From assembly GCA_043756865.1 (NCBI GenBank), contig JAYUQG010000024.1:91259-155258 (forward strand): 64,000 nt of DNA. Direction: 5' to 3'. Within the stretch, counting starts at the first letter, position 1. Each line of letters opens with the position of its first letter. Made by a program: the position numbers and the translations under genes. This DNA comes from a bacterium. GTDB taxonomy: Bacteria; Patescibacteriota; Minisyncoccia; Phycocordibacterales; UBA6899. Of this stretch, positions 5,048 through 42,681 are shown piece after piece. The notes beneath the pieces were generated by a model that did no database searches, was not told the origin of the DNA, and worked only from the letters and a program-made list of their open reading frames with translations.

Positions 5048-7156
<2,109 letters not shown>

Positions 7157-7253
7157 GACGCAGGGGCGGAAGCCCTCCAAGACAATGGGGAAGATTTTTT
7201 ACGAAAAATTTTCTGTTTTGTCAATGAACTCATCATTTCGCAAATGGTGTAGT

Positions 7254-7547
7254 ATGAAGACCATGCTCACAAAAGATGACATCAGTAATCTGGCAGAACT
7301 CGCGCGACTTTCTATTTCTGACGAAGAAAAAGCACTTTTCGCAGAGCGTCTTGGTCCCGTACTTGCCTACGTATCCGAGGTAACCTCCGTTACTACCGAA
7401 GAAGATGCAGTGCCCCGTGTTGGTGCACTAAGAAATGTTATGCGCGAAGATGGCGCGCCCAGAGAAGGCGGAACCTTCACTGACCGTATCCTCACCAACG
7501 CTCCTGCAACCGAAGACGGGTATGTTAAAGTGCGTCAGATTTTCTAG
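7254..7547 (+). CDS. gatC: Asp/Glu-tRNA amidotransferase subunit C
   Basis: Sequence MKTMLTKDDISNLAELARLSISDEEKALFAERLGPVLAYV... lies immediately upstream of gatA. The start is chosen at ATG 7254; 7263 is an alternative. Confidence 0.85.
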   Translation: MKTMLTKDDISNLAELARLSISDEEKALFAERLGPVLAYVSEVTSVTTEEDAVPRVGALRNVMREDGAPREGGTFTDRILTNAPATEDGYVKVRQIF

Positions 7548-7557
7548 TTTTCCACCT

Positions 7558-8991
7558 ATGTCTATCGATATACACAATCTCACAATTAAAGATGCAAGTG
7601 TCGCGCTTCGCGATGGGGAATACACTTCGGTGCAATTGACCGAAGCAGTGCTTACTAATGCAAAAAAAGAAAATCCAGAAATCAATGCGTATGCGGAAAT
7701 TTTTGAAGATGCGGTGGAGCTCGCCGCAAAGGCGGATGCACTGATTGCCCGCAAAGAGGGTGGACCAATGACCGGCATCCCTGTGTCTATAAAGGACAAT
7801 ATGCTCTATCAAGGCAAAGAATCTACTTCAGGCTCGATGATTTTGCGCGGACACAAAGCGACATACAATGGGACAGCAGTTGAAAAACTCATAGCCGGAG
7901 GAGCGGTCATTATTGGACGCACAAATATGGACGAGTTCGCCATGGGAAGCTCAACAGAGACGTGTGCCTATGGGCAGGTAAAGAACCCTATTGACCCCAC
8001 ACGCGTTCCTGGGGGCTCTTCTGGGGGTGCTGCTGCATCGCTTACTATGGGGGGCGCCCTTGGCTCCTACGGCTCGGATACGGGAGGGTCTATTCGTCAG
8101 CCTGCTGCGTTTTGCGGCATCGTTGGGCTAAAGCCCACCTACGGTGCAGTTTCGCGTTACGGACTTATGGCACTGGCGTCATCATTGGACCAGATTGGAC
8201 CATTCGGGAAAACCGTAGAAGACACGAGACTCCTTTTTGATGCAGTGCGTGGGCACGACCCCATGGATAGCACGTCAGTACCCGAAGCACATGCACTCCG
8301 CGCAAAACGCGATGCACCAAAGACGCTCACCATTGGTATTCCGGAGGCATTTATCGACATGGATGGAATGGATGCAGATGTACGTGAAAATTTTCGTGCA
8401 ACGATCGCCCGACTGGAAGCTTCAGGACACAAAATTAAACCTATTGACCTGCCGTCGATGCCGCGATCGCTTGCGGTGTACTACATCATTCAGCCCGCAG
8501 AAGCTTCCGCAAACCTTGCGCGGTATGATGGTATTCGTTTTGGATTCTCGAAATCCGCAGACCGTCTTCGTGAGGTGTATACAGAGACCCGCGGAGAAGG
8601 GTTTGGCAAAGAGGTCCGCCGACGCATCCTCCTTGGAACGTATGTACTTTCTGCAGGATATTACGATGCGTACTACAACAAAGCAGTTGCAGTTCGCCGC
8701 ATGATTATGGAGGAGATGAAGAAGGCGTTTAGTGAGGTAGATGTTATCGCTACACCCACCACCCCTTCTCCCGCATGGAAATTGGGCGCAATGAACGCGG
8801 ATCCACTCAAGATGTATCTCGAAGACATCTTCACTGTACCCGCCAATATTGCCGGTGTGCCAAGCATCTCCATTCCCTCAGGTGTGGTGACGCGCGACGG
8901 CGTGGTGCTTCCCGTGGGTATACAGTTCATGGCGGATGCATTCAACGAAGACGTGCTGTTTCAGGCGGGTTCTGCAGTTGAGCGTATATGA
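7558..8991 (+). CDS. gatA: Asp/Glu-tRNA amidotransferase subunit A (amidase signature family)
   Basis: Amidase signature GGSSGGAAAS and ...IPVSIKDN... are present. ATG at 7558 gives MSIDIHNLTIKDAS. Confidence 0.95.
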   Translation: MSIDIHNLTIKDASVALRDGEYTSVQLTEAVLTNAKKENPEINAYAEIFEDAVELAAKADALIARKEGGPMTGIPVSIKDNMLYQGKESTSGSMILRGHKATYNGTAVEKLIAGGAVIIGRTNMDEFAMGSSTETCAYGQVKNPIDPTRVPGGSSGGAAASLTMGGALGSYGSDTGGSIRQPAAFCGIVGLKPTYGAVSRYGLMALASSLDQIGPFGKTVEDTRLLFDAVRGHDPMDSTSVPEAHALRAKRDAPKTLTIGIPEAFIDMDGMDADVRENFRATIARLEASGHKIKPIDLPSMPRSLAVYYIIQPAEASANLARYDGIRFGFSKSADRLREVYTETRGEGFGKEVRRRILLGTYVLSAGYYDAYYNKAVAVRRMIMEEMKKAFSEVDVIATPTTPSPAWKLGAMNADPLKMYLEDIFTVPANIAGVPSISIPSGVVTRDGVVLPVGIQFMADAFNEDVLFQAGSAVERI

Positions 8992-9638
8992 CTATGTCAG
9001 ACAAACCCCCAGCAAAAGGACCACCAAAAGCAGCAGTAGGAGCGCCAAGCGGAAACAAGATATTTGCGGAGGTTGGAGGTATTCTCATAGCACTCCTCGT
9101 GTTTCTTCCAATCTTAAGCTCGCTTGCGGGGTCGCTCGGATTTCTTGGAGTGGTTGGTGACACGGTGGCTTCTGTTTTCTCTTATGTAAAGATGCTCGCT
9201 ACGGTTATTTCAATGGTTGCATTGATTATTGCTGTCTATTCGTTTATACGTATTTCAGAAATTGCCGCTGAGGAAACAAAGAAGCTTGGGCTCGCGCTCA
9301 ATTGGACAAGTGAACGAAAGCAGAAGAATGCACGTTGGGAGCGCGTAGAGACATACATGACTTCGCTGAATTCCTCTGACTGGAAAATTGCGATTCTTGA
9401 GGCTGATAACATTCTCGACCAAGTAGTAGAACGGATGGGCTACAAGGGGACCACGCTTGGGGAGCGCATGAAGCATATCGAAGCAAGTGATTTCCCGTAT
9501 CTTGAGGACGCATGGACTGCACATAAGACAAGAAATGCGATAGCGCATAAAGGGACTGACTATGAAGTATCCCGCAGTGATGCGGAGCAAACCATCAATA
9601 TCTATCACAGAATTTTTAAGGAGTTGGGGTATTTGTAA
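8988..9638 (+). CDS. hypothetical membrane protein
   Basis: The start overlaps the gatA stop (ATGA). It has an N-terminal Lys/Pro/Ala-rich tail and 2 TM helices. No family was recognised. Confidence 0.6.
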   Translation: MTMSDKPPAKGPPKAAVGAPSGNKIFAEVGGILIALLVFLPILSSLAGSLGFLGVVGDTVASVFSYVKMLATVISMVALIIAVYSFIRISEIAAEETKKLGLALNWTSERKQKNARWERVETYMTSLNSSDWKIAILEADNILDQVVERMGYKGTTLGERMKHIEASDFPYLEDAWTAHKTRNAIAHKGTDYEVSRSDAEQTINIYHRIFKELGYL

Positions 9639-9646
9639 AGCCCAGT

Positions 9647-10756
9647 TTATTCTGCCCATGGACTCGCCAATGGTTCGCCTACAAAAACACCTTGTGCAGG
9701 AAACGCAACGCTTTTCCAGTATGACTCAATCAGCGTCTCTCCTTGAGTGTAGTGAGTAATCACTATTTGTGGGTCAGGAAATTTTTTTTTCAGCGCGTAC
9801 GGTTCGCTTACTGTGCCGTAACTCCCTGTTACTCCAGCTTCAATAAATTCAAGTATGCTCATTTGCGAAGTGTCAGTCAGCATTCCACCAAATGAGGTTA
9901 GGTGGTCTGCTACTGCCCCATTGGGAAATTTGTTTGACGAAATGTTGGGGACCTTGGTTAGACCCTGAAAATAAAAGAGTGCATCGGTAGTATTAGAAAT
10001 GTAATTTTCTGAGGATGCTTTTGTTGATGTGGCACTCTCGGGTTGCGCAGAAAGAAGTTTCACGTGCACTTGCTGGCTAATTGCATGCCCAAGCATCGAT
10101 TTTGAATAATTATTTGCACGCATGCTTCTTATTTGATCTGATGTTTTCATAATGTACGCACTCCCAAATGGTTGTGAATTGTCAGAGGCGACCCCCCGCT
10201 CAATTAATTTTTTTACGCTCGAGACTGATTTTCCCGCGAGCATCATTGATGGCCTAAACCCAAAATCTGTATATGGTGCCAGAGACAGAGAATTATAATA
10301 GGGAAGTGCATCGGGCACATTCCGAGGATCAACGCACGCCATATCGTTGTACCCGAGAGATATTGCGGAGGTAATTCCGTTGCAATTAACGCGTGAGGGG
10401 TTTGTCCACGCAACGGCAATAATCTGAACTGTCTTTGGCAATGCAGCGTTTACTTCCTGAGATAATGCACCGAATTCCTCAGCAGTTAATTGATTTTTTA
10501 GGGGGAGGCTAACATGGACAATATTTTCATTCGGTATACCCCTTTTTGTTTGGTAGTACCATCCAATCTCGATACTTTCGGGGTCATTTTTGTTAATAAC
10601 AATTCCGGTGTTTTGACTGGTTACTTCCCTGTGAAACGTGAGCAATTTCTTTACTGGGGAGATTGTAACCCCACCTTCACTTCGGAAATGTCCAACAAAG
10701 TAGGTACTTACAAACATATAAGCAAGGACAAAAAGAAATATTTCTTTTCTAGGCAT
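9647..10756 (-). CDS. secreted hypothetical protein, possibly TIGR03790-like
   Basis: ATG at 10756 gives MPRKEIFLFVLAYMFV (signal anchor). The segment GIVINKNDPESIEIGWYYQTKRGIPNENIVHVSLP resembles the TIGR03790 N-terminus as I recall it. The tracked ORF start at 10777 is a TTG. Confidence 0.55.
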   Translation of the reverse strand: MPRKEIFLFVLAYMFVSTYFVGHFRSEGGVTISPVKKLLTFHREVTSQNTGIVINKNDPESIEIGWYYQTKRGIPNENIVHVSLPLKNQLTAEEFGALSQEVNAALPKTVQIIAVAWTNPSRVNCNGITSAISLGYNDMACVDPRNVPDALPYYNSLSLAPYTDFGFRPSMMLAGKSVSSVKKLIERGVASDNSQPFGSAYIMKTSDQIRSMRANNYSKSMLGHAISQQVHVKLLSAQPESATSTKASSENYISNTTDALFYFQGLTKVPNISSNKFPNGAVADHLTSFGGMLTDTSQMSILEFIEAGVTGSYGTVSEPYALKKKFPDPQIVITHYTQGETLIESYWKSVAFPAQGVFVGEPLASPWAE

Positions 10757-11058
10757 GCATACAGAATAGCATAGCAAGAAAGCAGGCTTAGCCTAAGGGA
10801 ACTCTCGGCTACCGCCGCGGGTGATATTCAATCTCGACGACTTGATAATGGATATCCTTTCTTCAGCAGACGGGACTCTAGCATAAGAGGCGCAACACCC
10901 ATTTCCAATTTTCAGAACGAGACTCTGTCGCGAATATTTTGCTTGCCGCCGAGCGCAAAATTTCTCGACCCCAGCTCGTGGTTTCGCCTGCTGACGAAAC
11001 ATCGCTCCGCTTTTCGAGTCCCTCGTTGAGTGCGGCAGCGCACTCAACACCGCCGTGC

Positions 11059-11080
11059 AAAAATACCACCTTACGGTGGC
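11059..11080 (-). terminator. rho-independent terminator closing the tRNA operon
   Basis: The minus strand reads gccacc-gtaa-ggtggt followed by attttt. Confidence 0.65.
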
Positions 11081-11092
11081 TTTTTGTATTTG

Positions 11093-11166
11093 CGCGGCGG
11101 ACGGGACTCGAACCCGCAACCTCCCACGTGACAGGCGGGTGCTCTAACCAGTTGAGCTACCACCGC
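11093..11166 (-). tRNA. tRNA-Asp (GTC); CCA not encoded
   Basis: Hand-folded cloverleaf: GCGGTGG acceptor, anticodon loop CTGTCAC, T-loop TTCGAGT. Confidence 0.85.
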
Positions 11167-11195
11167 AAATATTATTTTCTGGCCACCTTGACCAG

Positions 11196-11272
11196 TGGTG
11201 TCGACGGGAGGGAACGATCCTCCGACCTCGGGCTTATGAGTCCCGCGCTCTAACCAACTGAGCTACGTCGAC
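11196..11272 (-). tRNA. tRNA with CAT anticodon (elongator Met or Ile2); CCA encoded
   Basis: Acceptor GTCGACG/CGTCGAC and anticodon loop CTCATAA. It has an atypical T-loop ATCGTTC (A54, T58) and an A31-G39 mismatch. Confidence 0.75.
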
Positions 11273-11399
11273 ATATAAACATGCGTGCTCCAGTCACACC
11301 AATGAGCACAGTGGATTTATAGCATATTCTGTCTCAAAATCAAACTTGGATGTCATTTGCATGCGGTTAGGAATTAATCACCAGTCCTAAGTTCACAGA

Positions 11400-11519
11400 C
11401 AGGACTCGGTCACGAGTTACTAAGTCTTTTGGTGCGAAGGCCACCAAAAGCCCAAGTACTCCCGACCCCGACTCGCCCGTCTCACAAGGCTTCGACATGG
11501 CTCCGTCTTTCGATTCCTG
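11400..11519 (-). repeat. copy Y of the structured repeat family (see 36030-36186), inside the tRNA operon spacer
   Basis: The minus strand reads caggaatcgaa...cttttggtg-gccttcg-caccaaaag-acttagtaactcgtgaccgagtcctg. The 3' 26 nt match 36152-36178 apart from one mismatch and one 1-nt indel. Confidence 0.6.
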
Positions 11520-11552
11520 ATGAAAGTGCCATTGGGCGCTTTTTTGTAATTG

Positions 11553-11623
11553 TTGCGGGGACAGGAATCGAACCTGTGCCTGAAGGTTATGAGCCTTCCG
11601 AGCTACCGCTGCTCCACCCCGCT
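11553..11623 (-). tRNA. initiator-like tRNA-Met (CAT); CCA not encoded
   Basis: Sequence AGCGGGGTGGAGCAGCGGTAGCTCGGAAGGCTCATAACCTTC... is close to E. coli tRNA-fMet. It has an unpaired 1:72 position (A-A) and A11:T24, but only two G-C pairs next to the anticodon loop. Confidence 0.8.
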
Positions 11624-12438: not shown

Positions 12439-12514
12439 GCCGTTTTAGCTCAGCTGGTAGAGCATTTCCATGGTAAGGAAAAGGTCCCCGGTTCGATTCC
12501 GGGAAACGGCTCCA
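12439..12514 (+). tRNA. tRNA-Thr (GGT); CCA encoded
   Basis: Acceptor GCCGTTT/AAACGGC, anticodon loop ATGGTAA, T-loop TTCGATT. Confidence 0.9.
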
Positions 12515-12537
12515 TGCTAGTATCTCGCTACTAGTTT

Positions 12538-12610
12538 GCCGCCTTAGCTCATCTGGTAGAGCAACGGTATCGTAAATCGTAGGTGCCCAGTTCGAGTCTG
12601 GGAGGCGGCT
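12538..12610 (+). tRNA. tRNA-Thr (CGT); CCA not encoded
   Basis: Acceptor GCCGCCT/AGGCGGC, anticodon loop ATCGTAA, T-loop TTCGAGT. Confidence 0.9.
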
Positions 12611-12613
12611 CAA

Positions 12614-32262: not shown

Positions 32263-33591
32263 TTAAGCTACTTCGTCGATTTTCTCAAGCGGGCGATCAT
32301 TGATTGCACGTTCAAGTGAACTCAAACGTTTGTAGATTGAGAGCATTTCGACAATAGTCGGCCAATTGAGGACCAAATATTGAAAAGAACTTTCTACTCT
32401 TCCGAATGCGCGCACAATCTGCTGCATGACTCCAAGGGTGAATCCTGCAAGTATCGCCTCTTTGGAAAGCAGGGTTGGTGCGAGTGCGATGTAGGGAACG
32501 AGTGCACCCGCCTGTAGATAGCTATACCGCACCATGTTGAAGTACATGTAGTGAAAGTACATCCGAAAGTAGTTTGTTCTCACGTGACCAAACAGCTCAC
32601 GCAATGTCTTCGGTTGTGCCCGAGTTTCGTCCTCTTCGCCGAATACTAGCTCCTTGCGGTAAGCGTGCTCCACTCGTTGGTTGTGGAATTTCAATGTCGG
32701 CAGATAATAACCCGTCAGTGCGAGCACAATCGTACCGAAAACAGACCAGCAGACTGCAATAATCACCAATCCATGGGCGATCGGTCCGATGACGGGTATC
32801 TCCGAGACAAACTTCGTCGAGAGCATCCAAAGAATCGGCAAGAACGCAATGAGCGTCATCACCGCATCAAGCAGTCCCGCACCCAATCCTTCCATGATGT
32901 CTGCAAAACGCATCGTGTCGTCTTGAATACGTTGGGACGCTCCTTCGATGTGACGGACTTTGCTCCATTTCCCAGTATAGTACTCGTTCATCGCGGTGCG
33001 CCACCGGAAGTTGTAGTGCTGGATGAAATAGTTTCCCAGCGTTCTCACAATCACAAACACCGCTGCAATGGTGAAAAAGGTGGCCAGACGTCCGTAGTAC
33101 TCAGTATTTTCGATAGTTCCGGGGTTCGCAAACATGGTTTGAATCATGTTGTAAAACCCACCGAACCATTCGTTAATCATGACATCGAGTTGCACCTGAA
33201 ACCACGTGAAAAAGATAATCACAGCGGAACCAAGAAGCGACCACTTCAGCCATTTGTGTGAACTACAGAAGTACCAGCAGGCAATAAATATTCCGTAGCA
33301 AGGGATGAGGAATTGGTATGCCCAAAAAGTCACCGCGCTTCCGAGCGCACTTATCTGGGATTGCACCAACTTTACTCGCTCGGGGTCTGTCTTTGCACCG
33401 AATCGCGCCGCTTCCTTTTGTAGCGTTTCGAGTAATCCGTAGTCGAGTTGAGCAAAGCCGAACCATTGACCAACGGAATACATTTGACCTGTTTGCTCTC
33501 CTAATGTGAACCAAAACACCAAGCAGGCAAGTGCCCATATCACAAATGAGCCAAAGAAGAGGAGCGGCCTCGGAAAGAAGGAATTAAACAT
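32263..33591 (-). CDS. sbmA: SbmA/BacA-family peptide (antimicrobial peptide/cofactor) transporter
   Basis: It is collinear with E. coli SbmA as I recall it. Examples: MFNSFFPRPLLFFGSFVIWAL vs MFKSFFPKPGTFFLSAFVWAL, FRWRTAMNEYY, RHIEGASQRIQDDTMRFA, FHNQRVEHAYRKELV, YFHYMYFN and SIYKRL. Confidence 0.9.
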   Translation of the reverse strand: MFNSFFPRPLLFFGSFVIWALACLVFWFTLGEQTGQMYSVGQWFGFAQLDYGLLETLQKEAARFGAKTDPERVKLVQSQISALGSAVTFWAYQFLIPCYGIFIACWYFCSSHKWLKWSLLGSAVIIFFTWFQVQLDVMINEWFGGFYNMIQTMFANPGTIENTEYYGRLATFFTIAAVFVIVRTLGNYFIQHYNFRWRTAMNEYYTGKWSKVRHIEGASQRIQDDTMRFADIMEGLGAGLLDAVMTLIAFLPILWMLSTKFVSEIPVIGPIAHGLVIIAVCWSVFGTIVLALTGYYLPTLKFHNQRVEHAYRKELVFGEEDETRAQPKTLRELFGHVRTNYFRMYFHYMYFNMVRYSYLQAGALVPYIALAPTLLSKEAILAGFTLGVMQQIVRAFGRVESSFQYLVLNWPTIVEMLSIYKRLSSLERAINDRPLEKIDEVA

Positions 33592-34758: not shown

Positions 34759-35055
34759 ATGGGCAAAATGGATACATGGCGTATGACCGAAACAGGCACG
34801 GTCGGAGAATGGATACAGGCACCCAATGGTGAATTTGTGGGGACTATTGTCTCCGACTGTGGCGATGTGTACATCGCAGGAAGCAAGGACTGCCCTGATC
34901 CCTACGATGGCGCGCTCATTACCAAAGGCACGCGCGTGCGCTTCGTCCCCGAGCAAAAGGGGAACAAGGTGAAAGACATGGACACGGGTGTTCCGTACTC
35001 TTGGGGCGTCGCTCGAGAAATCGCGATTGTTCCTAAAACACTCAAGCACCGTTAG
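34759..35055 (+). CDS. small hypothetical protein (98 aa), possibly an OB-fold/cold-shock-like beta protein
   Basis: ATG at 34759 gives MGKMDTWRMTETGTVGEWIQAPNGEFVGTIV... The upstream part of the tracked ORF overlaps the divergent gene start. Family assignment is weak. Confidence 0.45.
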   Translation: MGKMDTWRMTETGTVGEWIQAPNGEFVGTIVSDCGDVYIAGSKDCPDPYDGALITKGTRVRFVPEQKGNKVKDMDTGVPYSWGVAREIAIVPKTLKHR

Positions 35056-35396
35056 CGGTGCTTTTTCTTTGCACCGCTAATTTCCGCGGACTCACGCACC
35101 CAGGCGTCGATTTGCTCGCGGTCAGTCATGATTTCTTCGGGGACTTCCCAGTAGCTCATGGCTACCTTCTTTTGGTCTTTGCTTGAATATGCAAACGGGG
35201 CGCTGCCTAGCGTTTCATAGTGAGCACGGTTTGTCTCGTTCACCTTGAAATAAAGCGTGCTTTCGGCAATGATTCCAAAAATTATCCCGTCTAAGTACAG
35301 CCCATAGCCGCCAAACATGGATTTGGAGGTAATGCCACGAATGCGCCCTAAGACATCATGCACCACATAGTCGTGGAACTCACTCGATTTTTTCAT
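35052..35396 (-). CDS. TfoX N-terminal domain protein
   Basis: The SKSMFGGYGLYLDGIIFGIIAESTLYFKVNE pattern is typical of TfoX_N. Confidence 0.75.
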   Translation of the reverse strand: MKKSSEFHDYVVHDVLGRIRGITSKSMFGGYGLYLDGIIFGIIAESTLYFKVNETNRAHYETLGSAPFAYSSKDQKKVAMSYWEVPEEIMTDREQIDAWVRESAEISGAKKKHR

Positions 35397-35848
35397 GGAC
35401 GTGGTTTGTGCAATGCTTCTTGCTCAGTCTTAAAACGAAACCATACTTTTCTCCAGTACTGGTAAGTGAGAAAAATAAAGACTCCTGCTAAGGCCGACCA
35501 TGCTCCAAGCAGAAAAAAGTAGGCACACCAGAAAAGTTCTTTGATATAAAAATATTTGATGAGTTTTGGGTAGCAACTCACCTCCGCCTGTGTGGCGTCG
35601 GGGTACTTTCTGCGCTGCGCTTCTTCTAGACTGTTTGCCACTGATGCGTGCATCCAAGAAAAGAATACCGCACAGACACCGAGATATTCGATCCAACCCT
35701 TGTTTGAAATATACGCAGTAGTAAGCAATACGAAAGCCACAATAATGGATTCAACTTGCCACGTATGCATGCCCGTCAGCTTCTGTATGCGCACCATACC
35801 GAGGCAAAAGAGGTTTTTCATAGTGCAAATTGTAACATGGACAGACAT
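35393..35848 (-). CDS. hypothetical membrane protein
   Basis: The stop overlaps the start of the TfoX gene. The protein has 3-4 TM helices. The start is uncertain; alternative ATGs lie at 35821 and 35770. Confidence 0.5.
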   Translation of the reverse strand: MSVHVTICTMKNLFCLGMVRIQKLTGMHTWQVESIIVAFVLLTTAYISNKGWIEYLGVCAVFFSWMHASVANSLEEAQRRKYPDATQAEVSCYPKLIKYFYIKELFWCAYFFLLGAWSALAGVFIFLTYQYWRKVWFRFKTEQEALHKPRP

Positions 35849-35860
35849 GGGGGTAATACC

Positions 35861-35888
35861 TTGAAAAATAGACGCATTTGGCTATACT
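35861..35888 (+). promoter_or_regulatory. sigma70-like promoter of tRNA-Gln
   Basis: TTGAAA-16 nt-TATACT ends 30 nt upstream of the tRNA. Confidence 0.5.
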
Positions 35889-35918
35889 GCGTAGGTTAGT
35901 TGGATTGATATAACATAT

Positions 35919-35989
35919 TGCGGGTTCGTCTAATGGTAGGACGTTACCCTCTGGAGGTAAATATTGGGGTTCGAGTCCCTGACCCGCAG
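35919..35989 (+). tRNA. tRNA-Gln (CTG); CCA not encoded
   Basis: Acceptor TGCGGGT/ACCCGCA has the U1-A72 pair typical of bacterial tRNA-Gln. The anticodon loop is CTCTGGA and the T-loop is TTCGAGT. Confidence 0.85.
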
Positions 35990-36002
35990 TTACCACACAA
36001 AA

Positions 36003-36029
36003 ACACTCTGCCAAGAGTGTTTTTGTTTT
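36003..36029 (+). terminator. rho-independent terminator of tRNA-Gln
   Basis: acactct-gcca-agagtgt followed by ttttgtttt. Confidence 0.75.
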
Positions 36030-36186
36030 GTGGTAACTCGCGGGTCAGGGACTCGAAATGCGTAAGGTGGTATACAAGACGAGCGAAGCGAGTGCTTGTC
36101 ACCGAGCCGGGGTCGAGAGCACTTTGTAGTTCGGTGGCCTTGCGCCGAAATACTTAGTGACTCGTGACCGAGTCCCTGACCCGCAG
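36030..36186 (+). repeat. copy X of a structured repeat family with 16-bp terminal inverted repeats derived from, or identical to, the tRNA-Gln 3' end
   Basis: gcgggtcagggactcg (36040-36055) is the exact reverse complement of cgagtccctgacccgc (36169-36184). An internal hairpin ttcggtg-gccttg-cgccgaa lies at 36130-36149. The unit is homologous to 11400-11519(-) and, at its ends, to 37154-37331. Confidence 0.65.
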
Positions 36187-36199
36187 CAATGTCGCAACG

Positions 36200-36221
36200 T
36201 CACCCTTTTTGGGTGATTTTG
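36200..36221 (+). terminator. hairpin plus T-run directly after repeat X (plus strand)
   Basis: tcaccc-ttttt-gggtga followed by tttt. Confidence 0.45.
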
Positions 36222-36392
36222 CTATGGGTGAAAATTGTTTGTGAGGGTGATGTTTTTCTCCCCCCGCTCAATTATGCCAATATATGTGCGGTGCACCTCG
36301 GCGCGCTCTGTGAGTTTTTCTTGGGAAAGCTCGCGTTTCAAGCGTTCCTCGCGGACTCGTTTGCCGAATTTGGTTAGCAACTGTTTATTCAT
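36222..36392 (-). CDS. XRE-family helix-turn-helix transcriptional regulator (56 aa; below the ORF-track cutoff)
   Basis: My translation of the minus strand is MNKQLLTKFGKRVREERLKRELSQEKLTERAEVHRTYIGIIERGEKNITLTNNFHP. This is the classic HTH_3 pattern (LSQEKLAE...RTYI..IERGE.N.T). Confidence 0.7.
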   Translation of the reverse strand: MNKQLLTKFGKRVREERLKRELSQEKLTERAEVHRTYIGIIERGEKNITLTNNFHP

Positions 36393-36452
36393 ATCTACAT
36401 GTACAGTGTAGGAAGTTGCCTACCATGGTTCTACATACTAAAGTTAGCAAAT

Positions 36453-37043
36453 ATGGACAATAATGCGGTGATATTTATACTAGTTGTTTTTGTTGTTTTT
36501 ATTGTGATGAAGATGTTTTTTCAAAAAAAGACACACACAAACACTCATTCAAAAAGCGGACTAATCCTTTCAATCATCTCGCTTTTGTTACCATTCGCGA
36601 AGGAGTTTTTAGAAAAGAGACAGGAGGAAAAGAAGTATATTACAGAAGACGCTCGATATAGTAAAAAACAATATTTCATGACGACCGCTGAGCATCATGT
36701 TTTCGACCAGTTGTTAAAAATAGCAGGGGAGAAATATCACGTCTTTCCGCAGGTGCACTACAGTAAAATTATGTACGCCGAGGGACAGCAGAATTTCCAT
36801 AATCCGTGGTTCAACAAGATAGACCGAAAGTCCGCAGACTTTGTACTTTTTGACAAGCACGACATTTCTCCTGTTTTGGTGATTGAGCATGACGATAAGA
36901 CTCATAATCGTAAAGACCGAATTGAAAGGGACGATTTTATTGACCACACACTTGAAAAAAGTGGAATTTCAATTGTGCATGTTCGACCATTCGCGACCGA
37001 AGAGGAACTGAAGAAACTACTCCAAGTAAAAATCAGTATATAA
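36453..37043 (+). CDS. DUF2726-domain (restriction-endonuclease-like fold) protein with N-terminal TM helices
   Basis: The pattern ...FMTTAEHHVFDQLLKIAGEKYHVFPQVHYSKIM...KSADFVLFDKHDISPVLVIEHDDKTHNRKDRIERDDFI...GISIVHV matches DUF2726. ATG at 36453 is the chosen start. Confidence 0.65.
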   Translation: MDNNAVIFILVVFVVFIVMKMFFQKKTHTNTHSKSGLILSIISLLLPFAKEFLEKRQEEKKYITEDARYSKKQYFMTTAEHHVFDQLLKIAGEKYHVFPQVHYSKIMYAEGQQNFHNPWFNKIDRKSADFVLFDKHDISPVLVIEHDDKTHNRKDRIERDDFIDHTLEKSGISIVHVRPFATEEELKKLLQVKISI

Positions 37044-37153
37044 GCTTGGATTGGCTTAAAATTGTTCCAACGTCGTCCCACACTCCCAGCAAATGGAAGC
37101 ACCCCTTGGGGGTGTTTTCATTTGCGGGAAAAAGTGCTCTGCAGCACTTTTGG

Positions 37154-37331
37154 CAGGGACTCGAAGCCGTTCTCCCCTATTTGTGAAGGATTCTTATCCT
37201 GAGTAAATGGAAAACGGGTACTGCCCCTGTAAGGGGAGAGTCTCTGACTCGGAAGACTGAGGCGAAACACTTGGCACATAAGCACTCCTGTGCGAATATG
37301 TTTAGTAACTAATGACCAGTCCCTGACCCGC
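37154..37331 (+). repeat. copy Z of the structured repeat family (ends conserved, interior different)
   Basis: The 5' end is cagggactcgaagcc. The 3' end gtttagtaactaatgaccagtccctgacccgc compares with acttagtgactcgtgaccgagtccctgacccgc in copy X. Confidence 0.5.
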
Positions 37332-37364
37332 TACTAAATTGAGTGAGGTTCGGTTCGCGAGAGT

Positions 37365-37790
37365 ATGATTATGACGCCAGAAAATTTAATAAACATAATA
37401 AGTATCGGAGGGGCACTACTAGGTGTTGTTGTTGGAGCACTCCTTAATCACTTTCTAGAAAAAGATAGAAATAAAGACTCTTTAATCTTAAATAAGAAAA
37501 TTGATATTTACTCCTCCCTGTTAGTTAAATTAAATACAGTATTTCAAGACAGTGAGAAAAATATTCTTAATGACCCACTCTTTGAAACAACAATCAGAAC
37601 AACCCTTGCACAATCATTGTCAGAAGCTCGCCTAATAGCTGATGCAAAATTAGAACAGAAACTCAGGGACTACTATGATGAAGCAGTGCTTTTTTGGGAG
37701 AATAAAAAGTACGACAACACCATGCCTAATTTAGTTATTGAGATTGAGCAGTTGATGCGAATTGAGCTAGGAAAAGAACGTCTGCATTAA
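37365..37790 (+). CDS. hypothetical protein with one N-terminal TM helix and a helical C-terminal domain
   Basis: It is a 141 aa A+T-rich ORF. No family was recognised. Confidence 0.5.
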   Translation: MIMTPENLINIISIGGALLGVVVGALLNHFLEKDRNKDSLILNKKIDIYSSLLVKLNTVFQDSEKNILNDPLFETTIRTTLAQSLSEARLIADAKLEQKLRDYYDEAVLFWENKKYDNTMPNLVIEIEQLMRIELGKERLH

Positions 37791-37894
37791 TCATTTTGCT
37801 GAGCGCCGAAATGACTTCTTTCAAATCGCCTTATATATCATTATTGGCTTAATGGGGGAAAGTAGGACGCAGGGGGCTGCGGTAAAACCACGAA

Positions 37895-38614
37895 GTGAAA
37901 AGAAGTATCGATCCAATGAAAAACGAAAAAATTAACTCAAAAATCATCGCTCTGTGGAACAAGTATTTTCAGAATGACACTGAGGTGTACGCACCGATGT
38001 TCTACGATGACTTCAAGCGGGGCGGGTTATTGTTTGTCGGCATGAACCCGTCATTTAGCGAGCGAGGATTCAAGACGATCTTGAAAGGCACAAAGTATGA
38101 GAAGATTGACCCCACTTCGTTTTTCAGGTGGAGTAATATTTCCTCAAACCCTGATCTTATCAGCGACTGTATTGCGGTCGAGACCCATGCGTACGAGAAT
38201 TACAAACCCTTCTTTGCTCGTCCTGTTGCGATCGCAAAAGAAGTCGGGCTTGATTGGCAACACATTGATCTATTTCTTTATAAAGAAACATCGCAGGCAG
38301 ATTTCAAGAAACGCATTAAGGATGGTGACTTGCTGAATCAATTTGCACTCGAGCAAATCGCGCTCTTTGAGGAGGTGCTCCTTGCGATTGAGCCGAAGTG
38401 CATCATCGTTGCGAACGCATTCGGCTCCGAGCTTCTCCGTGAACACATCAAGAATGACCTCTTGTGGGATAAAGAGCGGGGATTTCACTGGTTCACCAAA
38501 GGAGGACGAAAGATTCCCATGCTCTTTTCCTCCATGCTTAGTGGGCAAAGAGCACTTGATCGGTGGTCGTATGAACGCTTGAAATGGCACGTTGGGCAGG
38601 CGGTAAAATCATGA
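37895..38614 (+). CDS. hypothetical protein with weak uracil-DNA-glycosylase-superfamily-like motifs
   Basis: LLFVGMNPSF resembles the GxNPG/GMNPG motif of MUG/SMUG-type enzymes. ...MLFSSMLSGQRA resembles the PSxSxxN/R-type second motif. This is motif-level only. The start is GTG 37895 or ATG 37916. Confidence 0.5.
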   Translation: MKRSIDPMKNEKINSKIIALWNKYFQNDTEVYAPMFYDDFKRGGLLFVGMNPSFSERGFKTILKGTKYEKIDPTSFFRWSNISSNPDLISDCIAVETHAYENYKPFFARPVAIAKEVGLDWQHIDLFLYKETSQADFKKRIKDGDLLNQFALEQIALFEEVLLAIEPKCIIVANAFGSELLREHIKNDLLWDKERGFHWFTKGGRKIPMLFSSMLSGQRALDRWSYERLKWHVGQAVKS

Positions 38615-39321
38615 AAATTATGACAGGAATATTTTTTTCACATCCACATACACTTTCAGATCAAGTAGGTAAAATCTTGGAAAGAGTTGGTCCTCAGAAA
38701 TTCTTTTCAAGTTCTGACAAAGAAGTGAAGAAAGCACAAGAAGGATTCGCGGCATATTTCTTCACTCTTACTTTAAAGAAATACACAGGAAGAGACTGGT
38801 GGTTAGCTCAATACGATCAAGCGGCTCGGTCTTATCCAGATTTTAATTTTATATCATTCGCCGAAAATCCTGGCGATATAAAGATGGAACCAGTAGAACT
38901 AACTGGTATTTATCCTCATTTCAAAACTTTTGATGAGGCCTTAAGAGTTGTTGAAAATAAAAAGAAGAAATATGGATCTGAGCCAGTGAATTTTAGTCTG
39001 CTGGTATTTGTTAATCACGAAAAAAGCGAAGAGTGGATTAATCTGCTAAGGGAGAAAGTGAGTAGCGAGCATCCATTCCTAAGTATTTGGACTATACACT
39101 TGAGATTCAAGAAGGGTGGAAAGGAAGTTGGTAAGTCGGTCGCCCAAAGCATACCCCCCTTGCCATGGCTGAGGATTGAAGCAGATACTGATGATTCAGA
39201 AGTGCACAAGCGCCAGCCGCTCCCATCCTATATGGAAGAGCATCATGAAGGAAGGAATACTTACGTCACATTCAAACCCGAGTTTCTTGATAAGATCAGG
39301 TCGTTGCAAAAAAGTGCCTAG
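38611..39321 (+). CDS. hypothetical protein, translationally coupled to the preceding gene
   Basis: ATG 38611 overlaps the upstream TGA (ATGA). The protein is 236 aa. No family was recognised. Confidence 0.5.
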   Translation: MKIMTGIFFSHPHTLSDQVGKILERVGPQKFFSSSDKEVKKAQEGFAAYFFTLTLKKYTGRDWWLAQYDQAARSYPDFNFISFAENPGDIKMEPVELTGIYPHFKTFDEALRVVENKKKKYGSEPVNFSLLVFVNHEKSEEWINLLREKVSSEHPFLSIWTIHLRFKKGGKEVGKSVAQSIPPLPWLRIEADTDDSEVHKRQPLPSYMEEHHEGRNTYVTFKPEFLDKIRSLQKSA

Positions 39322-39806
39322 TTTGTTGGTGCTGTAAGAATATCCCCGAATGGCTTCACTGTACGGTATTTGTTGTAAATGAGGCAGAGACAGAGACGGG
39401 TGTTTTGTGTCTTATCTGTAGCATTCACAAAATGACCCCAGTGACCGAGACGCCTAGTTACAAGAGTAGAAGGGGTGGTAAGATATCCGTATAAGGTCTT
39501 GCCCTACATGTTTGAGACCGAGATAGTCAGCTATCAACAATAGGTTCGGCTGACCGAGTGCTATCAGAACTGGAAATTTAAAGATTCACTCAATTCCATC
39601 CCGACATACCGGCTGAGTGCCGTATCTAGAAACTCAAAGTCGCTCAATGGGCGACTTTGAGTTTGAGTTGTAGAATAGGTCTGTAATCTATAGGATATAC
39701 AAATGTCAGTCAAACTCATTCTGAAGAGATAGTCCGCTTCTTGAAAACCACAGAGCCGGAAGCCATTTGTATTAGGGGTGAATAGGGTGTCAGATTTGCA
39801 ACTTTC

Positions 39807-39835
39807 GGTTCGAATCCCTGAAGCATTACCTCCAC
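39807..39835 (+). repeat. degenerate copy of the tRNA-Gln T-arm/3' flank (possible distal island boundary)
   Basis: ggttcgaatccctga matches tRNA 35968-35982 ggttcgagtccctga at 14/15. It is followed by ..ttacctccac, compared with ..ttaccacac after the tRNA. Confidence 0.4.
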
Positions 39836-39933
39836 GGAATTGCACTGTACTTTCACCTTTTTTTATATTGCCTTGCGTTTTGTGCAGATATTGATAGTTT
39901 GAGCAGTATTATTTATCAACGCACGGCTTCTTT

Positions 39934-42681
39934 ATGCGTAAACTCGTCACCGTCTTATTCCTCGCCCTCACGCTTTTAGCTATCTCTCTGCCCACTGCGT
40001 TTGCAGCCTTCCCTGTTTTTCCTCCGACACTCAATAAAAGTCCCGACGCTGGGTATGCGGATGATTCAGTGAGCAGTGGAGTGGTGCCGAACATTGGTAC
40101 AACGAGTGCTACAGTCTTCACCTTTAAGGTGCTGTATGCACAGTCACAGAATCGTGAGCCATGGGACATTAATCTTGTTGTCACTGATGGAACAACCACT
40201 GCAATTCATGCGATGAATCATGATGTGGGTGCGAATGATCCAATATTACGCGATGGGAATTATGCGAATGGGGAACAGTACATCTTCGCTGCAACGCTCA
40301 CTCCAGGCATGTGGCAATACCACTTTGAAAGCGATTTCGGCGCACAACTTCCGGGAGCGGGGGAGTGGGATTTCACAGTGAGTGTCGATACGACTCCTTC
40401 GAAGTGTGGGGTGGATTGTTACTCAAATGTGCTTTTCCTGCCTGGACTTGAGGCGAGCAGATTATTTTGGACAGATCCAAATTGCATTTTCCTCAATTGC
40501 GAAAACCAACTATGGCTTGCCAATAGTGATACAGATGCAAAACAACTCTACCTTAATTCAAACGGCACAAGCATATTGAATGACATTTATACGAGTGTTG
40601 AACGAGGTGCGATCGACGAGGCGGCGATTCCTGTGGCGGGCACAAATATATATAAAACTTTTCTCAATAGTCTCAGTGAATGGAAGAATGAAGAGCATCT
40701 TATTGCCGACTACGCAGTAGCACCGTATGACTGGAGATTGTCAGTTGATGATGTGCTCACGAAGGGAATAAAAAACGGAGACAATATTTATTATGGTGGC
40801 GCGAGCGGGACATATATTCTTGATGAACTTTTACGCATGGCGTCCACGTCGAAAACGCAAAAAGTTACAATTGTTGCGCACTCAAATGGTGGATTAGTTG
40901 CAAAACAGTTAATGCTGAAGCTCCGCGAGCTAGGCAAGGAGGACTTGATTGACAGGCTCATTCTCGTCGCTGTTCCACAGGTTGGAACACCAAAGGCAGT
41001 CGGTGGACTACTTCACGGAACAGATCTTGGTCTCCCGTTCATTCTTGATGAGGAGCACGCTCGAACTCTTGGCGAGAATATGCCGAGTGCCTATGCATTG
41101 ATGCCATCTCAGAAATATTTCGAGACCATCAATCCGAATTCAATTACAAACAAACTCATTTCATTTACCGACTCACCGCTGTATGCGCCAGAGAGATCAC
41201 AGTACGGATTTTTGGTGAGCAACATGACGGAGCTTCGGGGCTATCTACTCGGCAGTGAAGGACGAACAGAGCCTGCCGATTCTGATCTCGATTCACCAAA
41301 TGTGCTGAAGTTCGAACTTCTCGATCAAGCATCATCAACCCATGCGCTACTCGATGAATGGCAACCTGCGAGTACGACCGAAGTGGTGCAAATTGGGGGA
41401 TGGGGAGAGAAAACCATATCCGGAGTCAGCTATTACACGGAACAACAACGTGATTGTGTGACTGTGCAGGGTCAGTTTGGCGCTAGTCACCAAGAGTGCG
41501 GTCCGTATTATGAGGTGAAAAAATACAAACCCAATTTTACGACAGAGGGCGATGGTACGGTGGTTGTTCCGAGTGCGCTTTGGATAGCGACAAGCACTTC
41601 GCAGGTTGAGAGGTATTGGGTGGATTTGAAAAAATACAATGATGAGAACATCGATAAAGACCACGCGAAAATACTGGAAGTGAGCACTCTCCTCGACTTC
41701 ATTAAGACCAAACTCACTAATGTGACGTCCTCACTCCCGAACTACATAGTAAACTCCGCATCGACGCTGAGCGACGCTCCAGACATAAAGTTTGTCTATA
41801 CACTCCACTCGCCGCTTTCGCTCAATCTCTACGACACTTTAGGAAATCATACGGGAATATCTACCACAACAGGTTACGTGGAGCAAAATATCTCAGGGTC
41901 TCGCTACGGCACATTCGGCGAAGTGAAGTATATTATTGCAAATGCCGATGTCGCTCAACATCTTGCGCTTCAGGGGTATGCGACAGGAACGTTCAGTTTG
42001 GATGTTGAAAAAGTACGTGGAGATATAATTCTCGCGAGCACCACCTTTGCTTCGGTGCCCGTATCTCCAAACACCATTGCGACATTCTCGCTTCCTGCAA
42101 ATGGTGACTTCTCATCTTCGACACCATTACGGGTTGACGTTGATGGAAATGGGGCAAATGATATCGTGCTCGTACCAGAGATTGGAGCAACTGTATATCC
42201 AGACTTCACTCCACCCGAAGCGATATTCTCATTTAATGCAATTACTAAAGATGTTGTGATTTTGGGGGAAGATAACGTTGGGACAACCTCAACACTAATC
42301 ACACCAACGTCGACCACCATCACTGACCAGTCGGGAAATACACTCAGCATCCCATTCATCAAGTTCAAAGAGAAGCCAACTAAATTAAAAATTGCATTCG
42401 ATACGTTAATTTATAACGGAGTAGCGACCGCAACACCATGGGTGACTATTGAGTATGAATGGGTGATTAAGAATAACGGCATGCTCCAGTCACTTTCACA
42501 GGATATTCGCATCAAGGGTGCGCGCCGTGTGACTGCAGACTATTCTTTGAGCAAGGGTGAAACCAAGATTATGGACAGAATCAGGGAGGATGGGGAAAAG
42601 AGTGTCACAAAAACTGTAAAAACGGGTGTAACCGTGCTTCCGCTGTCGACAAAAGCAGGAGCACTCGACGTGACGTATTGA
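39934..42681 (+). CDS. large secreted alpha/beta-hydrolase, LCAT-like (lecithin:cholesterol acyltransferase / phospholipase family)
   Basis: It has the signal peptide MRKLVTVLFLALTLLAISLPTAFA. LCAT-type motifs are FLPGLEASRLF and APYDWRLS, and the nucleophile elbow is VAHSNGG. The long C-terminal half is beta-rich and 915 aa in total. Confidence 0.7.
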   Translation: MRKLVTVLFLALTLLAISLPTAFAAFPVFPPTLNKSPDAGYADDSVSSGVVPNIGTTSATVFTFKVLYAQSQNREPWDINLVVTDGTTTAIHAMNHDVGANDPILRDGNYANGEQYIFAATLTPGMWQYHFESDFGAQLPGAGEWDFTVSVDTTPSKCGVDCYSNVLFLPGLEASRLFWTDPNCIFLNCENQLWLANSDTDAKQLYLNSNGTSILNDIYTSVERGAIDEAAIPVAGTNIYKTFLNSLSEWKNEEHLIADYAVAPYDWRLSVDDVLTKGIKNGDNIYYGGASGTYILDELLRMASTSKTQKVTIVAHSNGGLVAKQLMLKLRELGKEDLIDRLILVAVPQVGTPKAVGGLLHGTDLGLPFILDEEHARTLGENMPSAYALMPSQKYFETINPNSITNKLISFTDSPLYAPERSQYGFLVSNMTELRGYLLGSEGRTEPADSDLDSPNVLKFELLDQASSTHALLDEWQPASTTEVVQIGGWGEKTISGVSYYTEQQRDCVTVQGQFGASHQECGPYYEVKKYKPNFTTEGDGTVVVPSALWIATSTSQVERYWVDLKKYNDENIDKDHAKILEVSTLLDFIKTKLTNVTSSLPNYIVNSASTLSDAPDIKFVYTLHSPLSLNLYDTLGNHTGISTTTGYVEQNISGSRYGTFGEVKYIIANADVAQHLALQGYATGTFSLDVEKVRGDIILASTTFASVPVSPNTIATFSLPANGDFSSSTPLRVDVDGNGANDIVLVPEIGATVYPDFTPPEAIFSFNAITKDVVILGEDNVGTTSTLITPTSTTITDQSGNTLSIPFIKFKEKPTKLKIAFDTLIYNGVATATPWVTIEYEWVIKNNGMLQSLSQDIRIKGARRVTADYSLSKGETKIMDRIREDGEKSVTKTVKTGVTVLPLSTKAGALDVTY

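Follow-up and report, generated by a model that had tools for sequence, protein, structure and literature searches.

Structured modules and decayed cargo cassettes at the 3' end of a patescibacterial tRNA-Gln gene

In integrons, an anchor site (attI) stands beside the integrase gene intI, and each attC site works through the fold of one DNA strand, with a fixed GTTRRRY core and a variable loop. Their units, which are either empty or loaded with promoter-less cargo, form an array whose newest member lies next to the anchor. The cis-mobilizable elements (CIMEs) left by integrative and conjugative elements, and the tycheposon arrays of Prochlorococcus, consist of kilobase-sized elements with plain attachment-site (att) repeats. 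Direct repeats that run from the T-loop to the 3' end of a transfer RNA (tRNA) gene are the classical pattern for tyrosine integrases that target the T-loop. In tRNA trailers, the RtT RNA or tyrT repeats (RF00391) each include the last ~19 nucleotides (nt) of the tRNA concerned; at Escherichia coli tyrT, 178-bp repeats each carry the end of tRNA-Tyr. Here we describe the 3' flank of a tRNA-Gln gene in a 64,000-nt stretch of a patescibacterial contig (JAYUQG010000024.1, positions 91,259 to 155,258; hereafter the window), where copies of the tRNA 3' end lie mostly within short structured modules that alternate with two cargo cassettes.

The locus resembles an integron in that an array of units is anchored at one site, the units end in imperfect inverted repeats whose arms are antisense and sense to the anchor core, and the units are either empty or carry cargo. 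The newest unit would likewise lie beside the anchor. A fold and its strand-specific G-U pair are supported for the modules, and this fold of one strand may serve to define a recombination site. It differs in that the anchor is the 3' end of a tRNA gene rather than attI, the core is tRNA-specific and 12-18 nt long, the interior is a conserved three-way junction with invariant nucleotides, and most units are empty. No counterpart of intI was found upstream of the tRNA, where genes for a 151-amino-acid (aa) membrane protein, a TfoX_N protein and an SbmA/BacA transporter are present. RYYYAAC or GTTRRRY boxes were likewise not found at the module ends, which are tRNA-derived and differ from one tRNA to the next.

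With CIMEs and tycheposons the locus would share serial site-specific integration at a single tRNA 3' end, boundaries made of partial tRNA repeats, members without a recombinase, and cargo of an adaptive or defence type. Most repeats here, however, lie in structured modules of 100-150 nt with an antisense copy, and the one recombinase that could be identified is a large serine recombinase. RtT repeats are also trailer repeats that contain a tRNA end, but they lack an antisense copy and belong to one tRNA only, whereas the module family stands behind at least 29 anticodons and has no Rfam match. Like miniature inverted-repeat transposable elements (MITEs) and REPINs (repetitive extragenic palindromic doublets forming hairpins), the modules are short, non-coding, hairpin-forming and non-autonomous, and accumulate in intergenic DNA after genes; unlike these, their terminal inverted repeats are not constant but co-vary with the neighbouring tRNA, to which they hold a fixed position. 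The modules are apparently undescribed, no description having been found in the literature searched, and they stand behind every kind of tRNA gene tested, both in Patescibacteria and on one or more contigs of Elusimicrobiales. If mobile, they would be the smallest tRNA-targeting integrative units known (we know of no smaller ones), and would explain both the frequent contig breaks at tRNA genes and how defence cassettes without an integrase arrive there. If they act as RNAs, bacteria with minimal genomes would turn out to possess a new class of tRNA mimics.

A family of structured modules matched to their tRNA genes

The window was compared with loci from two samples. A 21-mer from the tRNA 3' end was scanned across one genome per species, which gave 103 loci, all carrying names of the Patescibacteria group except for one Solirubrobacterales record and some unclassified 'bacterium' metagenome-assembled genomes (MAGs). 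Metagenome loci, at least 120 of them, were picked with the core pattern of the type B module described below. Labels L001-L225 denote loci screened alongside the window, and L226 and L227 denote loci with homologues of cassette 2 genes. The closest relatives were two Candidatus Lloydbacteria MAGs (L090 and L102), with ~75% nucleotide identity in the SbmA gene upstream of the tRNA. tRNA genes were called with ARAGORN and Rfam, and protein families were assigned with Pfam, PADLOC and NCBIfam; AlphaFold2 models were compared with the PDB by Foldseek. Two covariance models were used, R1 built from 34 type B modules and R2 describing type A.

The original prediction for this locus was of an A+T-rich segment bounded and subdivided by copies of the tRNA 3' end, which were taken as integration scars. 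The exact recurrence of the last 18 nt of tRNA-Gln (S, CGAGTCCCTGACCCGCAG) is present as claimed at 36169-36186, and so is a 14-nt recurrence at 37318-37331, which forms the exact, consecutive part of a 15/18 copy at 37316-37333. An inverted copy of S with two mismatches lies at 36038-36055. In total, the window contains four matches to S against 0.06 expected, a number reached in none of 100 shuffles. Additional copies comprise an inverted T-arm at 37153-37167, a 13/18 copy of S at 37237-37254, the variant TCCCACACTCCCAG within 37075-37089 and the variant GAGACCGAGATAGTCAG at 39514-39530. An inverted copy had been reported as 27 nt long; the copy exists, but is really a 22-nt antisense copy (36038-36059) that abuts a 40-nt hairpin (35992-36031), and the two fold with the end of the tRNA into a single long hairpin (DNA fold -46.5 kcal/mol, z = -12.6). 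Three of the copies, namely the exact 18-nt one and the two inverted ones, proved to be closing-helix strands of structured modules and not scars of integration.

The features of the locus are listed in Table 1. The type B module begins with a strand (36038-36059) antisense to tRNA positions 54-71, continues into a three-way junction and ends in the exact copy of S (36169-36186); hp1, the hairpin that separates it from the tRNA, has a homologue in L058, where it stands at the start of the second unit. The type A module has the same plan: it starts with an antisense copy of the T-arm and closes, after a three-way junction, with the 13/18 copy of S. Its lead-in is 76% identical to the tRNA-Gln trailer of L058, and the same layout occurs in further loci. 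The assignment of 37245-37333 as a degenerate type B module is tentative, because R1 gives no match there at E <= 1. In the window, R1 matched exactly three times, behind tRNA-Met (83 bits), tRNA-Asp (77 bits) and tRNA-Gln (67.8 bits). The sense copies of the tRNA-Met and tRNA-Asp modules are partly decayed. Thus three of the four tRNA-unit ends of the window carry a module, the exception being a tRNA-Thr pair (12439-12611).

Among the 93 assessable tRNA-Gln loci, 21 have a hairpin and then an antisense T-loop/T-stem copy just 3' of the tRNA, and many of these continue into an interior that varies and then into a sense copy of the end of the tRNA. R1 found 12 matches in 100 tRNA-Gln genome loci and 98 in 100 metagenome loci. 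When the listed pattern matches with at least 400 nt of upstream sequence were considered, 66 of 110 lay 28-242 nt 3' of a tRNA on the same strand, and the tRNAs upstream of these represent at least 29 anticodons; of the other 44, about half appear to be coding DNA that fits the pattern by chance. For most of the 66 listed modules, the 3' end is an exact copy of the last ~17 nt of the module's own tRNA, including CCA when this is encoded, and the 5' end is antisense to the T-loop and T-stem of that same tRNA. The ends differ with each tRNA (for example CAGGGACTCGAA / CGAGTCCCTG). A segment complementary to the acceptor strand (anti-acceptor) was present in 35 of 63 listed modules against 14 expected, either contiguous with the anti-T-stem or 28-29 nt upstream of it, and in the latter case a second hairpin sits exactly at the boundary between acceptor and T-stem.

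The interior of type B follows the scheme TCG-AAAG-N-CGGAG-(hairpin)-GAG-N'-CGGGGTCG-(long hairpin)-GTGACCG-A-(tRNA copy), and that of type A the scheme CTCGAAGCC-(hairpin)-GG-N-TACTG-(hairpin with YGTAR loop)-GAGA-Y-TCCCTG. Across 98 type B modules, 93.2% of cells were paired compared to 69.4% in shuffles, and changes on both sides were seen in 27 of 28 pairs. The covariation score was 0.569, against 0.159 in shuffles (reached in 0 of 500) and 0.05-0.09 with slid partners. In the 34 seeds, covariation links the nucleotide that follows AAAG to the one that follows GAG (AU 12, CG 12, GC 7, UA 3, broken 0). For type A, 13 of 18 pairs were compensatory, and R2 found 11 further matches, often in tandem with type B in either order. 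A conserved G-U pair indicates that the fold belongs to the tRNA-sense strand. The modules are thus a real structured family, in which two types of interior (A and B), and possibly a third, can be told apart so far. The original prediction had allowed that its repeats might be part of a genome-wide family unrelated to integration; the family is indeed widespread, but is itself tied to tRNA 3' ends.

No Rfam 15 family matched the modules, either at E <= 1 in 35500-40200 or at E <= 0.1 in L179, L157 and L128, where only the tRNAs matched. Several known RNAs and sites were considered and rejected. By eye, the strands of the junction depart from the hammerhead core (CUGANGA / GAAA), and no likeness was seen to ribozymes of the HDV-like, twister, pistol or hatchet classes, to RNase P RNA or to tmRNA. 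A retroviral-type primer-binding site does not fit, as the antisense copy goes on to pair into the trailer and not with CCA. Neither are the modules tRNA pseudogenes: ARAGORN and Rfam do not call them as tRNAs, and on their 5' side they carry the Watson-Crick complement of the 3' strands of the tRNA rather than a copy of its wobble-containing 5' strands.

Three further observations concern the spread of the family. Type B modules occur in L157 (and L187) on a GC-rich contig (guanine-plus-cytosine content, GC, 0.65) whose NCBI protein names point to Elusimicrobiales, and two of them stand tail to tail after tRNA-Arg; the family is therefore not limited to Patescibacteria. In a tRNA cluster of L128 (reverse complement, 6100-7500), five R1 matches alternate with four tRNA genes. 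The Cys, Lys-like and one of the Leu tRNAs have clear matched B modules and another Leu tRNA a weak, divergent one, while one R1 match stands without a recognised tRNA upstream. In the window, a further sense copy of the tRNA-Asp end (AGAGTCCCGTCTGC) lies with a stretch CACCCGCGGCGGTAGCCGAGAGT 3' of the tRNA-Asp module, at ~10800-10910 on the minus strand. This stretch is common to the L080 tRNA-Gln trailer and may represent the third module type (C).

The island at tRNA-Gln and its two cassettes

The A+T-richness that had been noted by eye was borne out by calculation. The GC of 35991-39527 was 0.425 compared to 0.484 for the window, and none of 534 stretches of equal size in the rest of the window was as low (minimum 0.448). 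The tetranucleotide distance of the island, 0.292 against a maximum of 0.246 elsewhere, was the highest of 37 stretches compared. By part, the two cassettes have the GC values given in Table 1 and the modules 0.50-0.54. Four screened loci (L090, L074, L058 and L012) have differing content at tRNA-Gln with common end motifs. These results support the views that the segment is horizontally acquired DNA accreted at tRNA-Gln, and that at least two cassettes came separately. By itself, the island is an object of an ordinary type, a tRNA-anchored accretion of decayed mobile cassettes. We lean towards reading all of 35990-39530 as an accretion array at the tRNA-Gln 3' end, in which cargo cassettes are interleaved with non-coding modules.

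Judged by its sequence, cassette 1 is probably what remains of an element that uses a large serine recombinase to integrate beside the end of the tRNA-Gln gene. The stretch 36187-36236 is 97% identical to the DNA directly 3' of tRNA-Gln in L090, where the matching stretch is followed by an intact, convergent recombinase gene (L090 230-1744; 504 aa). In the window, the strand read from 36240 to 36169 encodes 24 residues before the junction, of which 21 are identical to the L090 recombinase, fused to the end of the XRE gene. The recombinase gene of cassette 1 has apparently been deleted down to these last 24 codons, and such a gene normally runs, on the opposite strand, into the tRNA. L055, L020, L018 and L051 have full-length homologues placed and oriented as in L090, and their reading frames enter the antisense strand of the tRNA by ~20 codons, so that integration changes the C-terminus of the protein.

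The L090-type protein has Resolvase, Recombinase and zinc-ribbon (Zn_ribbon_recom) domains, as do the recombinases of phiC31, of Bxb1-type prophages and the Ccr proteins of SCCmec. As in other large-serine-recombinase elements, the gene lies at the edge of the element by the attachment site, and integration is at the 3' end of a conserved gene; the differences are that the target is a tRNA 3' end, that the frame extends into the tRNA, and that the window retains only the terminal codons. The original prediction of serial integration followed by loss of the integrase was right as to foreign DNA at the tRNA and a lost recombinase gene, but the enzyme that left a trace is of the large serine type and not a tyrosine integrase. 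Large serine recombinases that target tRNA-Gln with a frame extending into the tRNA seem undescribed, and might serve as a site-specific integration tool; no description of tRNA-targeting serine recombinases in Patescibacteria was found in the literature searched.

The right end of cassette 1 (GTTCCAACGTCGTCCC) was surveyed in the 225 loci and the window. Its first 16 nt, with up to two mismatches, occurred only downstream of tRNA-Gln and co-oriented with it, namely in L012, L054, L058, L059, L074 and the window, 0.4-3.1 kb from the tRNA. Because the motif is conserved downstream of tRNA-Gln in six genomes, the copy at 37075-37089 is a conserved element arm that resembles the tRNA end. This copy and that at 39514-39530 are element-end motifs common to other genomes, rather than randomly decayed repeats. 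The cargo of cassette 1 is an XRE regulator and a DUF2726 gene, as predicted; the XRE protein resembles the control (C) proteins of restriction-modification systems.

Cassette 2 is related to L226, with 83% identity over 37900-39531, and the similarity stops right after GAGACCGAGAYAGTCAG. The native tRNA-Gln trailer sequence resumes at 39528-39531. In L074 this trailer also comes after an island, and its first ~30 nt are also found directly 3' of tRNA-Gln. We placed the right boundary of the island at ~39530 because the L226 similarity ends and the L074-type trailer begins there. The LCAT-like gene downstream had been suggested as a landmark for synteny, but no LCAT-like homologue was found near tRNA-Gln in the relatives compared, and the native trailer was therefore used instead. 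A motif, GACATACCGGCTGAGYGCCGTATC, lies at 39603-39626 just before the terminator of the native trailer and is conserved in the window, L074 and L226.

The p239 gene of cassette 2 probably starts at 37916. Its product had no Pfam match, and Foldseek related its model to family 4 uracil-DNA glycosylase (UDG), UdgX, TDG and SMUG1 (E = 3e-4, probability 1.0) with template-modelling (TM) scores of only 0.41-0.48. It has an invariant G-x-N-P-S motif (G42, N44, P45, S46). The modelled fold resembles that of the UDG superfamily, and p239 may be a glycosylase-like protein. The p245 model had no significant structural neighbour in the PDB, and PDB sequence searches found no match. Members of the p245 family are 59-81% identical across the ~40 homologues aligned. 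In L226 a RecD2-like helicase gene precedes the p239 and p245 homologues, and in L227 the p245 homologue (7001-7693) is the last gene of a methylase and GmrSD/HNH cluster. The family thus closes clusters that otherwise differ, with a helicase and a glycosylase-like protein or with a methylase and GmrSD/HNH, and p245 may be a shared accessory or mobility gene.

The cargo had been proposed to be of a defence type. The likeness of the XRE protein to control proteins, the fold of p239 and the place of p245 homologues at the end of restriction-type clusters point in this direction, but four of the five island proteins (DUF2726, p141, p239 and p245) have no match in PADLOC, nor in NCBIfam, and the TM-scores of p239 are weak grounds for such a role. 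We regard a defence role as suggestive only.

Table 1. Coordinates of features at the tRNA-Gln locus and of the other type B modules in the window (pLDDT, predicted local distance difference test)
Feature	Coordinates	Strand	Evidence and remarks
tRNA-Gln(CTG)	35918-35990	+	ARAGORN; Rfam tRNA 56.6 bits; no encoded CCA; anchors the array
S, last 18 nt of tRNA-Gln, CGAGTCCCTGACCCGCAG	35972-35989	+	Repeated sequence
hp1, hairpin between tRNA and type B module	35992-36031	+	Inverted repeat I2; fold; aligns with L058
Type B module	36038-36186	+	R1 67.8 bits, E = 1.4e-20; repeats; family covariation
Recombinase 3'-end remnant, encodes KQFSPIAKSPKKGDVATLLRVRDS	36169-36240	-	tblastn; L090 recombinase residues 468-491
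Cassette 1	36187-37089		blastn; right-end motif survey; GC 0.404
XRE helix-turn-helix protein, 56 aa	36222-36392	-	Pfam HTH_3 E = 1.1e-6; PADLOC Control_protein E = 3e-14
DUF2726 protein, N-terminal hydrophobic stretch	36453-37043	+	Pfam PF10881 E = 7.5e-24; no PADLOC match
Cassette 1 right-end motif, GTTCCAACGTCGTCCCACACTCCCAG	37064-37089	+	Resembles tRNA 3' end
Type A lead-in	37090-37151	+	Terminator-like hairpin 37090-37124; anti-acceptor TGCGGG 37123-37128; hairpin 37130-37151
Type A module	37153-37254	+	R2 87.6 bits, E = 7e-20; sole strong R2 match in the window
Degenerate type B module (tentative)	37245-37333	+	By eye against B consensus; ends in TTAGTAACTAATGACC and the 15/18 copy of S
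Cassette 2	37334-39530	+	Three genes and 200 nt non-coding; blastn/tblastn; GC 0.415
p141, 141 aa	37365-37790	+	No match in Pfam, PADLOC or NCBIfam
p239	37895-38614	+	240 homologues; AlphaFold2 pLDDT 92.9
p245	38611-39321	+	144 homologues; pLDDT 86.2
Cassette 2 right-end motif, TTGAGACCGAGATAGTCAG, right boundary of island	39512-39530	+	Conserved in L226 with 1 mismatch
Native tRNA-Gln trailer	39531-39664	+	85% identical to L074; intrinsic-terminator-like hairpin 39630-39664 (inverted repeat I4)
Type B module after tRNA-Met (11552-11623)	11390-11521	-	Antisense end matches tRNA-Met, not tRNA-Gln
Type B module after tRNA-Asp (11092-11166)	10908-11025	-	Antisense end matches tRNA-Asp, not tRNA-Gln

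Mobile units, tRNA-like RNAs and other readings

On balance, we favour the reading that the modules are miniature, non-autonomous integrative units. Such units would enter and leave either the 3' part of the tRNA gene or a sense copy that belongs to an earlier unit; the exchange would be reciprocal, would lie in the T-loop/T-stem core and would depend on a recombinase that acts in trans. Each insertion would restore the tRNA and, in about half of cases, bring in a terminator-like hairpin. New units would enter beside the tRNA, so that the array would grow outwards; the copy nearest tRNA-Gln is the exact one. Sense copies would provide extra landing sites for elements with serine recombinases, and for this reason cassettes would come to be interleaved with modules.

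One case is a unit in L184 that is 90% identical to a unit behind tRNA-Gly, yet lies inside a copy of the tRNA-Pro T-arm. This chimeric unit (L184, reverse complement, 649-1010 and 2240-2483) has an antisense end and interior of the tRNA-Gly type and a sense end of the tRNA-Pro type. Both junctions fall within 13 nt of T-arm identity (GAGTTCGATTCTC) common to the two tRNAs, as expected for the reciprocal insertion of a circular unit. A mismatch screen for chimeric modules was confounded by small hairpin insertions. In the window, hp1 and the type B module are homologous from end to end to the second unit of L058, but the genomes differ as to the side of this unit on which the A unit is found. 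In L130 (reverse complement, 5927-11540), a Type III restriction-modification pair (Mod and Res) is located between tRNA-Ser and a displaced A+B pair, with a decayed copy of the tRNA 3' part at the junction and no integrase. Finally, of 41 modules elsewhere, 20 are separated from their tRNA by a terminator-like hairpin and only 7 have such a hairpin beyond them, an order that argues against simple co-transcription.

Several results weigh against mobility or against the accretion array. The L184 chimera could also have come from gene conversion. No recombinase that moves modules was found, and neither the flanking open reading frames (ORFs) nor 10 window ORFs of integrase size showed a recombinase domain; as for the serine recombinase, its links are to tRNA-Gln cassettes alone. 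With at least 29 anticodons served, a classical element with an attP site would need matching specificity or retargeting for each. The conserved junction nucleotides and the invariant G-U pair on the tRNA-sense strand look more like a functional RNA, and the second hairpin is placed like the body of a tRNA. No module was found on phage, plasmid or viral contigs (the B core pattern gave 0 in IMG/VR, and blastn gave none in INPHARED and PLSDB). As for the array, neither an excised form nor a truly empty site was seen, and the flank comparison gave a single presence/absence pair, L090 versus the window, in which the L090 site holds another element.

A bolder form of the mobile reading, which we consider improbable, is that tRNA genes of Patescibacteria and some Elusimicrobia anchor an integron-like system. 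Modules would then be attC-like sites recognised as folded single strands, whose stem would reproduce the duplex of the T-stem and acceptor end of the respective tRNA gene, and units, with any cargo between them, would be inserted and excised beside the tRNA by a recombinase acting in trans. If true, structure-specific recombination sites would gain a new class, one that is reprogrammed for 29 or more tRNA targets.

It is doubtful, though compatible with mobility, that the modules are instead functional tRNA-like 'minihelix' RNAs from read-through tRNA transcripts. The antisense segments would replace the 5' acceptor strand and the 5' T-stem strand, the three-way junction would replace the T-loop and the second hairpin would stand in for the tRNA body, while the sense copy would supply the acceptor end and discriminator of the upstream tRNA. 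Such RNAs could be cut by RNase P and RNase Z, receive CCA and perhaps be recognised like the cognate tRNA; the cassettes would be ordinary integrative elements, and the sense copies merely their extra attachment sites. The very strong covariation and the invariant junction features fit this proposal, as do the excess of anti-acceptors, which puts the second hairpin at the boundary described above, and the position of the modules, always on the strand of the tRNA and a median of ~62 nt downstream among the listed matches. The sense copy also stops exactly at the discriminator, or at CCA where encoded; the R1 matches of L128 alternate with tRNA genes, three of which have clear matched modules; and the predicted minimum-energy RNA fold pairs the tRNA body with the downstream sense copy. 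Against it stand the terminator-like hairpins, which usually come before the module, and the arrangement in which two or three modules of different types mimic one tRNA in tandem and in either order. The sense copy is more exact than pairing needs and the antisense copy less so, closing-helix mismatches are not biased towards wobble pairs, and in L184 the antisense end fits tRNA-Gly while the sense copy fits tRNA-Pro.

Two simpler explanations of the repeats fare worse. That every tRNA 3'-end copy is an attL/attR scar of serial tyrosine-integrase islands with the integrase lost, as first proposed for the locus, is very unlikely. The direct repeats do begin in the T-loop and stop at the tRNA 3' end, the composition is deviant and cassettes differ between relatives, but this model gives no account of the inverted copies. 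The structured modules that hold the exact and inverted copies also occur behind other tRNAs, usually without cargo; two of the 'scars' are conserved end motifs, and the sole recombinase trace is of the serine type. We give no more credence to local duplication, in which tandem duplication and unequal crossing-over of the tRNA 3' flank would have produced the array without site-specific recombination. A tRNA whose 3' end is directly repeated within the trailer has a precedent in the tyrT locus, and interiors from the same locus are slightly more alike than those from different loci (0.67 versus 0.58; p = 0.007, n = 14). The units of the array, however, are of different types (A, B and cassettes) and not copies of each other, and the neighbouring B and A units of the window are not each other's closest relatives. 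Homologous units also occur in unrelated genomic contexts in two phyla, the Rfam RtT family gave no match, and duplication leaves the antisense copies and the conserved fold unexplained.

Neighbouring features

A 15-mer resembling the T-arm (GGTTCGAATCCCTGA) had been noted at 39807-39821. This 14/15 copy exists, but its place is beyond the island, where the native trailer gives way to the LCAT-like gene (context 39665-39933), and it marks no boundary. No cloverleaf was found there and no tRNA match at E <= 1; the 15-mer may be left over from an earlier tRNA or att site.

Upstream, the tRNA is adjoined by a TfoX_N competence-regulator-like gene (35052-35396, minus strand) and the SbmA/BacA transporter gene (32263-33591, minus strand), core genes that are kept in L090 and L102. 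Contigs L022, L062 and L069 stop at most 1 nt from the tRNA-Gln 3' end and L002 stops inside the tRNA; assemblies thus seem to break at this tRNA-Gln hot spot.

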